A stretch of 64,000 nt of DNA. Origin: Acidobacteriota bacterium. Lineage in GTDB: Bacteria > Acidobacteriota > UBA6911 > RPQK01 > JAJDTT01. Position numbers and translations under genes: made by a program. Below are positions 18,342-24,038 of this stretch, one piece after another (positions within the stretch are counted from its first letter, which is position 1; every line of letters starts with the position of its first letter). The notes beneath the pieces are model-generated. The model searched no databases and had not been told where the DNA came from. It saw only the letters and a list, made by a program, of their open reading frames with translations. The stretch is taken from positions 2,656,001-2,720,000 of the forward strand of contig OZ242374.1 in NCBI GenBank assembly GCA_965209055.1. Direction: 5' to 3'.

Positions 18342-18449
18342 TACAGCGTCTCCTATTCTGAGGCCGGGTCAGTAGCCGGCGTGCTTGTGGACCAGTCCTT
18401 CCAGCCGTTCTGCCCGGCGAAATCGTCTCAGATTCCCAAAGATCAGGTC

Positions 18450-18584
18450 CAGCCCACTTGGCGCAGACAGCCGAAAGAAAAGGGACAGCCCACTTGGCGG
18501 AAAGCAGCCGAAAGAAAAGGGACAGCCCACTTGGCGAACGCACTCGCGGAACGGAACGGATACGGAACGGAAAAGGGACAGTCT
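18450..18584 (+). repeat. Tandem 36-37 bp repeats containing AAAAGGGACAG (left flank of RAYT unit)
   Basis: cagcccacttggcg at 18450, 18486 and 18523. AAAAGGGACAG occurs three times. Confidence 0.9.
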
Positions 18585-18685
18585 CTATTTCGGTTCGTCC
18601 TTCCCGGTTCTGGATCGTTGTTGTCATCAGGGGCGCGAATCGCCTCCACTGGGAGTCCGATCCCGAAACCCGGAGGACCACGACC

Positions 18686-19645
18686 ATGGCCCGAACTGCC
18701 CGACACAAGAGCTCAGAAGCCGCCTTCTATCACGTCACCAATCGAGTCGTCGGCCGGCCCGGCTGGTTCCCCTTCAGGAATCGCCAGTCCCGTCTCAAAC
18801 TCCTGCACATGATGTTGTTCTACGTGAACGCCTACCGCTGTCGCCTGGCTGCCTACCAGATCATGGACAATCACTTCCACCTCGTCGTCCATTTCGAGAA
18901 GTTCCGCTCCCTGTCCGGTAAGGAGCTGGAGGACCATGCCGGGCAGTTCTATGGACACCGGGCGGAAGAGGTCACTGGCGATTGGACCGACACCCAATGG
19001 AAGTCCTTCAATCGGCGGCTGTTCGACCTGTCGAGACTGATGGCCGACCTGGACGGACATTACGCACGGTGGTTCAACGACACGCATGAGCGGCGAGGTC
19101 ATCTCTGGGGCGATCGTTTCAAGAGTTCCGAACTGCTCGATGAACAGGCCGTCCAGGACGTCATACTCTACGTGGAGCTCAATCCGGTCCGAGCCGGACT
19201 GGTCCAGCGGCCCGGGCAGTGGAAGTGGGGCTCGGCCTGCTGGCGGCTCAACGGCCAGGATCAATATCTGATTCCACTGGGCGAGCTGTTTCCTGAGGAT
19301 CCCGGAGAGGAATTGTACAGCAGTTACCGGGCGCGGCTGTACCATCGAGGCGCGGTTCCCACCCGGGAGAACCAGGCCGCCATCCCCGACTGGATCCTCC
19401 ATCAGGAGGAGCGACGGGGATTCGCCCGCCCCGGCGGATTTCGTCGGCGTCTGCGTTTTCTGACTGACGGGCTGGCCGTGGGGCCGGCGGCGAAGGTGGC
19501 GCAACTGCTGGAGACCTATCGGCGGCAAGGTCGATATCGACGCCGCCGAAACCCCATCCCCCAACTGGGCGGAGCGCTGTATTCCCTGCGGATACATCCA
19601 CACAGATTCCAACGATATCCCAAGACGTCCCGGATTATCTATTAA
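18686..19645 (+). CDS. REP-associated tyrosine (Y1/HUH) transposase, native C-terminus replaced by an insertion
   Basis: FYHVTNR, AYQIMDNHFHL (HUH), GHLWGDRFKS, YVELNPVRAGL, WKWGS. The ORF runs into the inserted element after ..YSLR. Confidence 0.9.
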   Translation: MARTARHKSSEAAFYHVTNRVVGRPGWFPFRNRQSRLKLLHMMLFYVNAYRCRLAAYQIMDNHFHLVVHFEKFRSLSGKELEDHAGQFYGHRAEEVTGDWTDTQWKSFNRRLFDLSRLMADLDGHYARWFNDTHERRGHLWGDRFKSSELLDEQAVQDVILYVELNPVRAGLVQRPGQWKWGSACWRLNGQDQYLIPLGELFPEDPGEELYSSYRARLYHRGAVPTRENQAAIPDWILHQEERRGFARPGGFRRRLRFLTDGLAVGPAAKVAQLLETYRRQGRYRRRRNPIPQLGGALYSLRIHPHRFQRYPKTSRIIY

Positions 19646-19741
19646 GTGGTGTAATTACTGCGAGTTAGATCTAATCTGGACCCGTTTCTCTTGCCCGAGA
19701 CGTCCCTTGATATCCAGCTCCATCCGCTATATTATGTGGTA

Positions 19742-20977
19742 ATGAGTGAAGTAAAGAATACGACCGCTCCAGCCCGGAAAACTAAGCCGAAGGGTCGCCA
19801 TCCTCACAAGGCGCTCTCCGCCGCATTCGTGCGCTCGGCCCCGCCGGGCAGACACTGCGACGGCAATGGCCTCTACCTCTTCGTCCAGCCGAGCGGAGCC
19901 CGGAGCTGGGTCCAACGCCTCGTCATCCGGGGCCGCCGCCGCGACTTCGGACTCGGCAGCGTGGCACTGGTCTCGCTCGCCGAGGCCCGCGAGAAGGCGC
20001 GGGCCAACCGCAAGCTGGCCCGCGAGGGGGGAGATCCGCTGGCCGAAAGACGCCGCGCCTGGAACATGCCGACCTTTGCCGAAGCCGTCAAGCGGGTAGT
20101 GGAGCAGAAGCGGTCCGGCTGGCGCAATCCGAGGGTGGCTCAGGACTGGATGGTGAGCCTGGGGCGCTACGCCTTTCCTCACATCGGGAGGCTGCCGGTC
20201 TCGGAGGTGACGAGTGCCGACGTGATCGGGATTCTGGCTCCGATCTGGCACGAGAAGCCGCCCACCGCCCGGAAGCTGCGCCAGCGCATCCGCGCGGTCC
20301 TGGAGTGGGCCGTGGCGATGGAATTCAGGATCGACAACCCCTGCGACCGCGTCGGGTCGGTTCTCGGAACACAGGACGCCGTGGTGCGGCACATGCGGGC
20401 CTTGCCGCATCGGGAGGTGGCCTCGGCGCTCCGGAAGGTGCGGGCCTCGGACGCGGCGCCCGTGTCCATGCTGGCCTTCGAGTTCCTGGTGCTCACGGCG
20501 GCGAGGTGGGGCGAGGTGCGGTGGGCCGAGTGGTCGGAGATCGATCCGGCGCAAAGGACGTGGACGGTTCCGGCGACGCGCATGAAGTCCAAACGCGAGC
20601 ACCGGGTGCCGCTGTGTGGCCGGGCGAAGGAAATTCTGGCCGAAACACGGACGCTGGAGAATGGAACCGCCCGGCTGGTCTTCACCCGAAGGGGCGGAAA
20701 GCCGCTCGCCGAGGGGGCGCTGCGCCATCTGCTCCGCCGGAACGGGATCCCGGCCGTGCCGCACGGGTTCCGGTCGTCGTTCCGGGACTGGGCCGCCGAG
20801 GAGACGGACCATCCACGCGAGGTGGTCGAGGCGGCGCTGGCGCATGTGGTGAAGAACAAGGTCGAGGCGGCGTACCGGCGCACGGACCTGTTCGAGCGGC
20901 GGCGTGTGCTCATGGAGGACTGGGCGGGCTATCTGGCCGGCGGGAGTCGGCAACTGGTGTCCGGTCGGCGGCGTTGA
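19742..20977 (+). CDS. P4-like tyrosine integrase with arm-DNA-binding domain
   Basis: DGNGLYLFV..GARSW..LAEAREKA arm domain. Catalytic residues R (TAAR), K (MKSK), HGFR, H (LAH) and Y (AYRR) are all present. Confidence 0.95.
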   Translation: MSEVKNTTAPARKTKPKGRHPHKALSAAFVRSAPPGRHCDGNGLYLFVQPSGARSWVQRLVIRGRRRDFGLGSVALVSLAEAREKARANRKLAREGGDPLAERRRAWNMPTFAEAVKRVVEQKRSGWRNPRVAQDWMVSLGRYAFPHIGRLPVSEVTSADVIGILAPIWHEKPPTARKLRQRIRAVLEWAVAMEFRIDNPCDRVGSVLGTQDAVVRHMRALPHREVASALRKVRASDAAPVSMLAFEFLVLTAARWGEVRWAEWSEIDPAQRTWTVPATRMKSKREHRVPLCGRAKEILAETRTLENGTARLVFTRRGGKPLAEGALRHLLRRNGIPAVPHGFRSSFRDWAAEETDHPREVVEAALAHVVKNKVEAAYRRTDLFERRRVLMEDWAGYLAGGSRQLVSGRRR

Positions 20978-21030
20978 GCCGCCGTGGTGGTCCTCCCGGC
21001 CGGCTTCGGGATCTGGCGTTCGAGTTGGCT

Positions 21031-21343
21031 TCCGGGAGGTCGGTTTTGACCGCTGAAAAGTGGCGTGTCGTGGCCGTACGGGAGTGTGAACGGGACATGC
21101 GGGGTGGATTCACAAAAAGCGGTCCCGGCGATTCACAACTCCGCTTCCCCCGATCTTTTTTCCTTTCAGTCAGTTGCGGCCACATTCCCGGCTTCGCCGC
21201 GCCCGCACGGGGAAATCGGAGGTGGATGGGAGCGACCCCCCCTTTTTCCTGCCCGGTGCGGGCGCGGGGGTGTGGCGCCATTCACATTTGCGCCACACCC
21301 CCTGGGGGGGTCGCTCCCATCCAATTGATCCCTGACGGGAAGG
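21031..21343 (+). ncRNA. Structured non-coding unit, copy 1 (candidate ncRNA or ssDNA structure)
   Basis: Perfect 20-bp IR (21223-21242/21304-21323) enclosing two hairpins. Homologous to copies 2 and 3. Expression as RNA is not shown. Confidence 0.5.
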
Positions 21344-21559
21344 TGGAAGAACCGCCCTATGAAGTAGAGAAACGTGGCCCTCGTTCCGGGTGGAGCGGCG
21401 GCAGTGATCTGGCGCACCGGATAGGATCCCTTTCCCGGACTTGGAGACGTTCCCGTGTCGGATCGGATCGCGGTTCACGAGCCGATGCTGCATGCGGTGA
21501 TCCAGGCGGGGGACGATTTGGCTCCAAGCGTCGCCGTCCCTGCCCACTGATTCCTTTCG

Positions 21560-21865
21560 GTGTCCTGGATCCTTGCGCCACGCGGTGGCGAGTCCACAGA
21601 AATGCGGCTGCGCCAGCGACTCCACCAGAATGATATCGCGGCCGTGCGGCACGGGTTCCGGTCGTCGTTCCGGGACCAGGCGGAGGAGGAGACGGACCAT
21701 CCGCGCGAGGTCGTCGAGGCGGCGCTGGCGCAGGTGGCGAAAAACAAAGTCGAGGCGGCGAATCGGCGGACGGACCTGTTCGAGCGCCGGCGTCGGCTCA
21801 TGGAGGACTGGGCGAGCTATCTGGCTGGCGGGAGTCGGCAACCGGCGTCCGTCCGGCTCCGTTGA
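21560..21865 (+). pseudogene. Duplicated 3' fragment of the tyrosine integrase
   Basis: HGFRSSFRDQAEEETDHPREVVEAALAQVAKNKVEAANRRTDLFERRR. The catalytic His and Tyr are changed to Q and N, and there is no N-terminus. Confidence 0.9.
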
Positions 21866-21918
21866 TCCGCCGTGGTCGTCCTCCCGGCAGGTTTCGTAAT
21901 CTGGGGTTCGAGCCGGAT

Positions 21919-22229
21919 TCCGGGAGGTCGATCTTGACCGCTGAAAAGTGGGGTTCCGTGCCGATCGGGGAGTGCACATGAGACAACGGAGGGCATGTGC
22001 ACCATGAGGGCTCTTCGCCGTGCACGGCGACTTTCCTCTAACTTGCTGTCCCCGTTCGGGTTACGGCTCGCCTCGCGGCTCGGCGGTGCCGCTCGGGGAA
22101 AGCGGAGGTGGACGGGAGCGACCCCCCTTTTTTGCCTCCCGGATCGGCAAAGCGGGGCAGGTTGATGCGCACTCTCCGTGCCATCGCCTCGGGGGGTCGC
22201 TCCCGTCCCAATGATCCCTGCCGGGAAGG
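21919..22229 (+). ncRNA. Structured non-coding unit, copy 2 (divergent interior)
   Basis: Perfect 18-bp IR (22110-22127/22191-22208). The interior sequence differs but still folds into two hairpins. Confidence 0.5.
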
Positions 22230-22543
22230 CGTCTGGATCGCCTGAGCGCGTGGCGCTGCGGCACGGAACGGCGCGGTGGGCAAGCCGCCGCGTGCCAGTG
22301 CTCGTACAAGCGTCTGTGGACGGCCCCATGGCTGGACGGAGTGATCTGGCGGATTGAACAGGCAATCTTCTTCCAGAAATGCGGAGTGTGCTGAAAGGGA
22401 CGCGGGCCGATTCGACGGCTATGGCAGCGTCAGGGCCTCGCTGAGACCGGCCATCGAGTGGCGACCAGGGGCGGAAGATCGCGACGCCGGCGTGGAGATC
22501 GACGACGACGTTCGCGACGCTCTCGTGGCGGGCGACACGCTTG

Positions 22544-22853
22544 CCGGGGAGCTCATTTTGACGGGTACAGAGCGCCCCACCGTGTCGATCCGGGAGTGTA
22601 AGGGAGACAAAGGGGGCAACTTACATCATGGGAGTCTGCAAACTTACACACGCGATTTCCCCGATCTCTTTGTCGCTCATGCTGTTACGGCCATGTTTTC
22701 GGCTCCGCCGTGCCCGCACGGGGAAAGCGGAGGTGGAAGGGAGCGACCCCCCCCTTTTTCCTGCCCGGTGCGGGCGCGGGGGTGTGGCGCAATTTACATC
22801 TGCGCCACACCCCCTGGGGGGGTCGCTCCCTTCCAAAATATCCCTGCGGGAAG
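22544..22853 (+). ncRNA. Structured non-coding unit, copy 3
   Basis: Perfect 20-bp IR (22734-22753/22816-22835). 3' mini-hairpin TCCCTGCGGGA at 22841-22851. Confidence 0.5.
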
Positions 22854-23637
22854 CCCCCGGAGAAGAATCCGGAAGACCTGTTAGAACTCTGCCAGGCGTC
22901 CGTTCCCCACACGTGGTGCGTGATCCAGGCATGACCACAGGCGAAACGTGCCAATGGGATCCGCAGGTGCAGGTGGATTTGCGGCGTCCTCTTGGACGAG
23001 GAGGTGGACCGAACCCCGGAAGGTCTGAACTTGGAACGGCAGGTGGAGGTCGGCGTCGGGGTCCGCTCCAGGCCCAGCCCCCGGTCCAGGGCCTGGCCGA
23101 CGAGGCGGTCGGCGCGGGTGGTGGTGGTCCGGCCGTCGAAAGCCAGCTCGACGCCGTGGCGGCGTGCGACGAGGCGGCGGCCGAAGCGCAGGGCGCGGTT
23201 TCTCCGGCCAGCCGGAACAGAGGACGGACCGGGGGAACCTATCCCCCCAGACCCCCCAGTGGCGCCAGAACCCCGGGCGGCTCACCTTGCCGCCAGTGAA
23301 CCTGGCGCTCCTGTTCGTCGCGCGTCCCATGAGAATGGGACCCTCGCGCGGTCTCCTCGGGCTTCCAGCCCGGAGTGAGACGTCGGCCCGTTTCGGAAGT
23401 CCTGGCCCAACGGACCCGTCCGGATCCGAATGTCCGCCCCCAATTCCCGGAGCGCGCAGGCTCTTGAAACCTGGGAGTCGAGGCGAGAAACTCGTCCCTG
23501 GAGTCCACGGACCTCCAATAGGGTCGAATGGAATCCCGTTTAGAAGGTGGGTTGCAATGAGGTAAACCGCTCGGGAGAATAGATCCTAACTATATTAATA
23601 TCAGATACTTACGAGAATTCTTCCGTAGACCCTGCGG

Positions 23638-23667
23638 GAGCAGCGCTCGAACGCCGTCGTCGCGTAA
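23638..23667 (+). pseudogene. Displaced native C-terminus of the RAYT gene (EQRSNAVVA*)
   Basis: In frame with CTG CGG of the duplicated core, ends in TAA. Confidence 0.65.
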
Positions 23668-24038
23668 ACTCGACTGACCGTTGGCCGTCGACCGTCCCGC
23701 GGTGGCGTCGCACTCCCAGGATCACTGGATGCACTCAATAGCTCTATCCCCGGAACGAGGTTCTCGAGTCTGATCCCTTCCGGATCCTCCCCTTCCGGAT
23801 GGTGCGTCGCGAGTCGGAGGTGCCCGAGGATCCATCGGCGCTGGACGACCGGTCCCAAGAGTGGGCCAACTGTCCGAAACCGGACACTTTGTCCCGGAAT
23901 CGGACACTTCGTTGCGGCCTGAAGCAGGATCGGTGCGTGATCGGGTAGTGATCGAGACGCGAGATCATCCTTGACGTCAGGAATCTGACCCAGAACGGCC
24001 TCCTCGCAGCTTCCGTGTGGCTTTCCGCGCAACTCGAG

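Follow-up and report, generated by a model that had tools for sequence, protein, structure and literature searches.

A conserved palindrome of a high-copy DNA module as the probable landing site of related integrase elements in an Acidobacteriota genome

Tyrosine integrases of the lambda/P4 type are heterobivalent, act on an attP with arm sites, use a short identical overlap and are targeted to tRNA genes, and integrons combine an IntI-type integrase with attC sites that carry a GTTRRRY core. Passages of PMC5704250 describe two kinds of tyrosine-integrase element that settle in other mobile elements. Those of the IME_oriT type are small, occupy a short conserved site of other mobile elements, and allow more than one copy per genome and nesting inside other elements; in the tandem accretion of ICESt1 and CIMEs, att integration beside or inside a resident goes with internal att sites and decayed integrase genes. 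In IS110 elements, according to the portion of PMC11208160 that treats bridge RNAs, a structured non-coding module beside the recombinase gene holds a copy of the target core. The MOBP origins of transfer (RP4, the Ti borders, H. pylori tfs4) have an inverted repeat 5' of the nick site and adjoining conjugation genes, and their nick region follows the consensus (C/T)ATCCTG(C/T) given in a section of PMC3772185.

The locus described here lies in a 64,000-nt stretch of DNA (the window, G000:C1:2656001-2720000) of a 6.08-Mb genome (G000), and it shares features with each of these systems. As in lambda and P4, the integrase has the same domain make-up, its gene lies beside attP with its own promoter, and the identical cores are 8-10 nt long; the targets, however, are loops of small palindromes in multi-copy repeats (a REP-like doublet, the palindrome of a repeated module that we call the unit, and a Y1-like gene), and a single genome has 16 paralogs. 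The small size, the short conserved target in other mobile elements, the multiple copies and the nesting recall the IME_oriT type, whereas the docking site is here carried by the integrase elements themselves in about 70 copies per genome, is a candidate oriT only and occurs in another phylum, the copy in the window sitting in a look-alike site of a transposase-like gene. Internal att sites and a decayed integrase gene likewise recall tandem accretion, but the array junction of the window falls inside the resident integrase gene instead of an att core, and the palindromes belong to a separate structured module. In contrast to both, the att sites of the paralogous integrases are drawn from several small palindromes that belong to multi-copy repeats. 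Judged by these comparisons, the system appears to be neither an integron nor a bridge-RNA system.

A sequence-only reading of the window had observed that the hairpin at the 3' end of the third repeat unit is identical to the insertion site of the element that carries it, and had offered three explanations: that the motif is a preferred attB through which elements insert into one another, that the structured unit specifies the target in the manner of IS110 bridge RNAs, or that the match arose by chance in GC-rich DNA. The motif of copy 3, TCCCTGCGGGA at 22841-22851, does match the empty site at 11 of 11 positions, and the other two copies carry TCCCTGACGGGA (21329-21340, copy 1) and TCCCTGCCGGGA (22215-22226, copy 2), as reported. 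The features of the locus, all on the forward strand, are as follows.

18458..19591, +, Y1_Tnp-like (IS200-like) gene (PF01797, 31.9 bits, cut-off 23), broken 10 codons before its stop and resuming at 23638
19584..19591, +, attL, the 8-nt core CCCTGCGG on the left, at whose last base (19591) the homology to the empty paralog stops
19592..19741, +, left end of the element (P' arm), AT-rich, matching the left ends of five paralogous elements from 19605
19707-19735, +, sigma70-like promoter ahead of int, within the left end
19742..20977, +, P4/CP4-like tyrosine integrase, 411 aa, group 1, with Arm-DNA-bind_3, Phage_int_M and Phage_integrase domains (Pfam)
20978..21343, +, unit 1, with an outer 20-bp stem (21223-21242/21304-21323), an inner hairpin (21266-21302) and the terminal palindrome (21329-21340)
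21344..21604, +, tail past unit 1 (class F), with ~190 nt common to three other units
21605..21865, +, 3' fragment of a second integrase gene (last ~87 codons), remnant of a truncated resident element
21866..22229, +, unit 2, with a variant inner hairpin, an outer stem (22110-22127/22191-22208) and the terminal palindrome (22215-22226)
22230..22559, +, spacer between units 2 and 3, found in 5 of 5 elements of this type
22560..22853, +, unit 3, with an outer stem (22734-22753/22816-22835) and the terminal palindrome (22841-22851)
22854..23629, +, tail and right end (P arm), ~780 nt, the final ~230 nt kept in six elements and ending ..CCGTAGA
23630..23637, +, attR, the 8-nt core CCCTGCGG on the right, followed from 23638 by the rest of the Y1-like gene

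The empty site, previously a reconstruction, is a real sequence that can be seen directly in a paralog of the interrupted Y1_Tnp-like gene. This paralog (G000 4989571-4990864, 97% identity over 998 + 304 nt) joins without a gap the stretches that correspond to 18594-19591 and 23630-23933 of the window, has GCGCTGTATTCCCTGCGGGAGCAGCGCTCG at the site and reads TATTCCCTGCGGGAGCAG across the junction. In the window the left junction is TATTCCCTGCGG/ATACATCC (core 19584-19591) and the right junction is CCGTAGACCCTGCGG/GAGCAG (core 23630-23637), with the slash at the junction. The insertion therefore measures 4,038 nt (~4.04 kb) between 8-nt direct repeats CCCTGCGG, the core being identical at both junctions, present once in the empty paralog and falling within the coding sequence, ten codons short of its stop. 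The copy 3 motif is internal, ~780 nt inside the element, and is not an end of the element; nor is the 11-mer peculiar to copy 3, since it is a family feature of the units of this genome.

The Y1_Tnp-like gene has five paralogs with 76-97% identity, one of which supplies the empty site. In G001, which is a second species of this genus, the left junction is again present, differing at 1 of 20 nt, and the gene sequence upstream of it is similar. No usable empty/filled pair in G000 emerged from the flanks of 11 loci of relatives. A single contig of sequencing run X2 contains the joint of 19583 to 23630, which is explicable by the paralogous empty copy. We also observe three direct repeats of ~30 nt (..gaaagaaaagggacagcccacttggcg..) at 18440-18590 of the window, just upstream of the Y1_Tnp-like gene.

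On the basis of these and the following genome comparisons, we put at roughly 0.7 the probability that the conserved palindrome of a 70-copy DNA module is the landing site of related integrase elements, and that the site match results from ordinary recombination with no guide. The terminal hairpin is a DNA site of short dyad symmetry (TCCC-loop-GGGA, then AGG) at the conserved 3' edge of a palindromic DNA module of ~150-290 nt, the unit, which P4-like integrase elements carry just downstream of int and which also occurs in many cargo segments that lack an integrase. Related integrases would use the palindrome as attB or crossover core, strand exchange within ..CC(C)T-loop-GCGG leaving the inserted element flanked by 7-9-nt direct repeats; the anatomy, the empty site, the nested insertions and the conservation are seen directly, whereas the catalysis by integrases, the exact cleavage positions and any other role of the unit are what we infer. 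The window contains a cargo-less composite of such elements, 4.04 kb long, which would have been inserted by conservative site-specific recombination near the 3' end of the Y1-transposase-like gene, where TATTCCCTGCGGGAG resembles the site. Copy 3 would match the insertion site because both are instances of a core recombined by the integrase family, and the unit would not encode the target. The empty/filled pair with its 8-nt repeat and the recurrence of the left junction in the second species both argue for this reading.

The integrase itself points in the same direction, because it has arm-binding, core-binding and catalytic domains. It scores 51.6 bits for the catalytic domain PF00589 (cut-off 27.1), 65.2 bits for the arm-type DNA-binding domain PF13356 and 81.3 bits for PF22022, the solved CP4-like integrase fragments 3jtz and 2khv match it, and its catalytic residues, picked by eye from the translation, are found in ..ARWGE.., HGFRSSFRDW and ..AAY... 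These matches identify it as a heterobivalent tyrosine integrase with its own DNA-binding domains. The genome encodes 16 full-length integrase paralogs (66-100% identity), each followed by at least one unit. In group 1, formed with its five closest paralogs (78-82% protein identity), the relatives share the left end of the window element from 19605 and its last ~230 nt, and the six elements have the common ends ..CCGTAGA-core-A(C/T)ACA(C/T)CC... Shared ends and repeats are expected of att recombination and thus also support docking by the integrase.

Five of the six group-1 elements have a 10-nt repeat and occupy a REP-like hairpin at its loop; their core is unlike that of the window, and within this group CCCTGCGG is known from one lineage only (G000 and G001). 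Three sibling elements have the left junction ..GGGGGGGT-GGGGACGGCA-ACACACCC.. and the right junction ..CCGTAGA-GGGGACGGCA-GTCCCCCC.., where the core GGGGACGGCA is the 10-nt repeat and corresponds to the loop of the second hairpin in a REP-like doublet, the usual attB of group-1 elements. The doublet, ~70 nt long (GGAGCGGCGACTTTCCTGTCGCCGA..GGGGGGG..TAGGGGGGACGGCAGTCCCCCCTTTACGC), occupies ~20 sites in G000 (e.g. 1094996, 1528547 and 4905075). A 16-nt search for the site gave 26 matches, which by our own reading are 20 intact sites, five group-1 right junctions and one unrelated sequence. Two further group-1 elements measure ~6.7 and ~16.4 kb from their right junctions. The element plan is thus a left end, int, one or more units, 0-13 kb of cargo and a right end, with the units internal. 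We had considered the unit as the right terminus and P arm of the element and rejected this, since the tails past the units are kept for 60-250 nt and the right ends lie elsewhere.

Two other sequences were noticed near integrase genes. The group-2 integrases (G000 68159, 580048, 2485155, 3838758 and 4968550; locus L034) adjoin a conserved sequence of ~130 nt ending ..GCAACGCAGTCCGCCGG/G, which is apparently structured, is also cut by the class E ends described below and has no match in Rfam at E <= 0.1. In the REP-like flank of a composite paralogous to that of the window, there is a run of ~25 G (G000 ~818060-818090), possibly a tract prone to slippage or else an error of the assembly.

The most direct view of the palindrome as a target comes from other groups of integrases. 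Group 3, with five integrase genes, has CCTTCCCGC.AGG at the integrase-proximal end in 5 of 5 cases, which is the 3' half of the unit palindrome plus its tail read on the opposite strand. The conserved far end of group-2 and group-3 elements, the class E terminus, cuts six units (four of the 70 and two degenerate ones) after ..GCGG. Three clean nested insertions split a unit palindrome and are flanked by 7-9-nt direct repeats (TCCTAGCGG, CCTTGCGG and CCTG(T)CGG), the tail beyond them being continuous with intact paralogous units. One of these elements, of ~9.1 kb, lies between ..ATCCTAGCGG/ACTGTTTC.. and ..CTTCCTAGCGG/GAAGGCTCCAATA.., and its tail beyond matches two intact units; the remaining two have the flanking repeats CCTTGCGG and CCTG(T)CGG. 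A 27-kb outer element probably holds one of the nested insertions, which would make it an insertion into the unit of another element. The geometry of the nested junctions is of the att type, with a core that has no inverted repeat beside the integrase-proximal end, and differs from the outcome expected of a relaxase acting at an oriT. The group-3 ends, the three nested insertions and the six units cut at the same position all favour the palindrome as the landing site, and because att-type nested insertions split unit palindromes, elements of the family do insert into each other at the motif.

The first of the three earlier explanations, a preferred attB, is thus borne out across the genome, where nested insertions split units, but not for the tandem array of the window itself. 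The array boundary lies at ~21605, ~260 nt past hairpin 1 and inside the second integrase gene, with only CGG shared, and the three hairpins are all intact, each followed by a tail class that is also found after other units. We conclude from this arrangement that the array was not built by insertion at the palindrome. Units 2 and 3 with their spacer are intrinsic to all five elements of that type, and 21605-22853 of the window is 96% identical to G000 469001-467754. The same composite is present at a second locus (G000 ~814549-818172) with a REP-type core, and must therefore have moved as a whole at least once.

At another locus (L052, G046:C30), an insertion sequence encoding a DDE transposase (PF13701) interrupts an ICE-type unit (1501-1647, - strand) directly past CCCTGCGG. 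The coincidence of this cut with the position of the integrase junctions was discounted as support, since it was made by a DDE insertion sequence. Among copies of the class E ends (e.g. G000 1583519, 571510 and 3848412), a segment of ~335 nt (positions ~190-525) is found in either orientation, a pattern suggestive of an invertible DNA switch.

The units form a family of high copy number. In the 6.08-Mb genome BLAST detects 67 segments that match and a motif scan 70 oriented units, and 66 of the 70 end in TCC(C)-N3-5-(G/A)GGA-A(G/A)(G/C/A), typically TCC(C)-loop-GGGAAGG, with loops of 3-5 nt. The commonest loop, TGC, is present in 27 units and gives the exact 11-mer TCCCTGCGGGA. In other genera, diverged units have a different interior but the identical 3' tail TTTATCCCTGCGGGAAGG. 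This conservation, in 66 of 70 units and across genera, is a further reason to regard the palindrome as the site of docking. A covariance-model search detects the unit in 26 of the 76 genomes of the order, which belong to 10 of its 32 genera, and a BLAST search detects it in 13 of 41 genomes. Rfam 15 gives no match at the gathering score in the window and none at E <= 0.1 for nine units of four loci, the plasmid DNA collection contains nothing similar to the unit, and a full-text literature search, supplementary files aside, returned neither a guided tyrosine integrase nor a description of the unit.

The surroundings of the units vary. About 30 integrase-less segments of 0.85-6 kb in G000 (e.g. 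337529-338652 and 5203721-5207577) have a unit on one side and the hairpin AGGAG-GGGGGACTGTTAGTCCC or variants of it on the other, with cargo genes that lie on the opposite strand from the unit. In the class B tail (nine units, e.g. G000 2975941, 6075309 and 1596851), a small ORF starts ~44 nt past the palindrome, with its start codon in a small hairpin, and reads as a zinc-ribbon-like protein (..YRCPDCGY..).

The outer stem of the unit covaries. Among 24 diverse members, 5 of 19 pairs have changed on both sides (21 cells), for example from G-C to A-U in eight sequences and from G-C to U-A in five. The covariation score is 0.155, compared to 0.059 for shuffled alignments; none of 500 shuffles reaches it, a result that does not amount to a probability since the sequences are related, and slid registers score lower. 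The changes are almost purely Watson-Crick and, because G-U pairs are rare, the unit fits a DNA-level palindrome better than an RNA. Three RNA-seq runs with the same species label have 0 reads on 18500-24000 and hence provide no test of transcription, and the fourth run, X2, with contigs of unstated kind, found again the repeats and the one joint explained by the paralog. A pseudoknot of 21197-21212 with 21252-21267 was dropped after we saw, without a formal count, that its 5' partner forms differing local hairpins among copies. We also observe that a hexamer specific to each unit type is found in three copies upstream and in a fourth copy at the apical loop of the inner hairpin. The repeated words are TTCACA in unit 1 (21087-21140, 21279-21285), TTACA in unit 3 (22590-22650, 22792-22797) and GTGCAC in both unit 2 (21975-22030) and the ICE-type unit, and they may be binding sites for an accessory protein.

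Four observations weigh against the palindrome as the landing site. Five of the six group-1 elements, the group of the window element, use another core; arms of only 4 bp and a loop of 3-5 nt are odd for a recombinase core of fixed spacing; the tandem junction of the window is not at a palindrome; and in G046 a unit is cut at the position of the integrase junctions by a DDE insertion sequence.

In addition, another primary function of the unit is indicated, because ICE-type units also keep the motif without change in genera without demonstrated integrase use. In several genera the unit lies directly upstream of a VirD4-like coupling-protein gene in type IV secretion clusters. It is placed between the gene for a conserved 310-340-aa protein and the VirD4/TraG-like coupling-protein gene in other genera and once in G000 (1832116-1832393), where the cluster also encodes VirB4, VirB6, VirB8, VirB9, VirB10 and VirB11-like proteins, a primase-like protein, ParA and two unassigned ORFs of 536 and 717 aa. 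The 310-340-aa protein, always just upstream of ICE-type units (L032:4400-5329, - strand; L054, L057, L060 and L048-L050), is 50% identical across families and has no family in Pfam or NCBIfam. Its predicted model (mean pLDDT 64) has a winged-helix N-terminus and matches only winged-helix regulators, none at E <= 0.001, and its nearest Atlas clusters are unnamed and mostly from Acidobacteriota. Because a palindromic DNA module adjoins the coupling-protein gene of type IV secretion clusters, the unit is a candidate oriT.

The unit also recalls the nick region of MOBP origins, in that ATCC(C)TG(C) lies no more than ~12 nt 3' of an inverted repeat. Nevertheless, the sequence in most units is (T/G)ATCCCTG(C/G), one C longer than the MOBP consensus, and only a few have ATCCTG (G000 unit ends 1583505 and 3844660; locus L046); no similar plasmid DNA was found, and PF03432, the relaxase family searched, has 0 matches in G000 and in the five other unit-bearing genomes. 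That the unit is an oriT-like module is possible but less likely than not. More doubtful still is that it is moreover a portable transfer-and-docking module: an oriT-like element of a type IV secretion ICE family that integrase elements and cargo segments copied to become mobilisable. Its invariant terminal palindrome would then serve both as nick-like site and as shared landing pad, at which paralogous P4-like integrases insert entire elements or exchange cargo, giving a dispersed, integron-like network with ~70 pads per genome.

An integron-like platform, in which the unit beside int acts as attI/attC and cassettes (tail, genes and unit) are exchanged at the palindrome to build arrays, has the general layout in its favour, with a site beside the integrase gene and structured palindromes between cargo modules. 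Past GGGAAGG there are at least 12 recurrent tail classes and 13 singletons while the unit before is conserved, arrays of 2-3 units are common near integrases, and one sibling has a different 4-kb cargo that begins exactly past the palindrome. We consider such a platform unlikely, however, because neither a circular cassette nor a cassette-sized empty/filled pair was found, the tails are mostly conserved for 60-250 nt beyond the palindrome, and the array junction of the window is away from it. The integrase, with its P4-like domain set and arm-binding domain, is not IntI-like, the core of the unit is TCCC-loop-GGGA without GTTRRRY, the units are at 70 dispersed loci, and the apparent crossover falls in a small palindrome 3' of the big stem.

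Still less probable is that the unit is an oriT with the motif as nic site, and that a conjugative relaxase made the ..GCGG junctions instead of the integrases. The MOBP-like nick region and the position upstream of the VirD4-like gene would fit, and relaxase-mediated integration is known for TrwC, as a passage of PMC3264647 reports. The right junctions of the nested insertions, on the other hand, lack an adjoining inverted repeat, as att-type but not oriT-type junctions do, siblings with identical ends use a core without a nic-like motif, and PF03432 is absent from the six genomes searched.

A coincidence of 11 letters in GC-rich DNA, with no functional link, is highly improbable. The exact 11-mer occurs 41 times in the genome on both strands, compared to 11.1 expected under a first-order Markov model, and the 27 unit ends account for the excess. 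The ~14 copies outside units are near the expected number, and in the 64-kb window alone matches with up to one mismatch are not enriched (six, compared to 3.3 expected), both of which would fit chance; a random insertion, though, would have to find one of these ~14 sites among 12 million positions, paralogous elements use the same class of core repeatedly, and the same junction is found again in G001.

The idea that the unit, as RNA or folded DNA, sets the target of its own integrase through the hairpin, like an IS110 bridge RNA, appeals to the 11-mer of the target in the window element and to the strongly structured unit with compensatory changes, but is the least credible of all and is refuted by the condition that the earlier reading had itself set: the 3 of 3 siblings examined have TCCCTGCGGGA at unit 3 and yet integrate with the unrelated core GGGGACGGCA, so that the att core does not co-vary with the hairpin loop and homologous elements do have att cores unrelated to their own hairpin; the units of these siblings have no internal copy of GGGGACGGCA, the sole partial match (9 nt, at the right end) being a polymorphism that does not follow the core; and the recombinase is of another class than that of IS110, with DNA-binding domains of its own, the covariation is DNA-like, with few G-U pairs, and Rfam gives no match.

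Preferring the palindrome as a landing site removes a tempting wrong reading of this locus, that of a tyrosine integrase guided by RNA or DNA. The comparisons further describe a crowded natural system, a 6-Mb genome in which 16 paralogous integrases interact with ~70 copies of one structured module and in which small palindromes of multi-copy repeats, belonging to three or more classes, act as att sites. The unit family, present in 26 of 76 genomes of the order and with no Rfam counterpart, merits a curated model, since annotators now read it as unique sequence. If the unit is an oriT, the strategy of IMEs that integrate into oriT, so far from streptococci, would extend to another phylum, and the system would point to an unrecognised family of relaxases.
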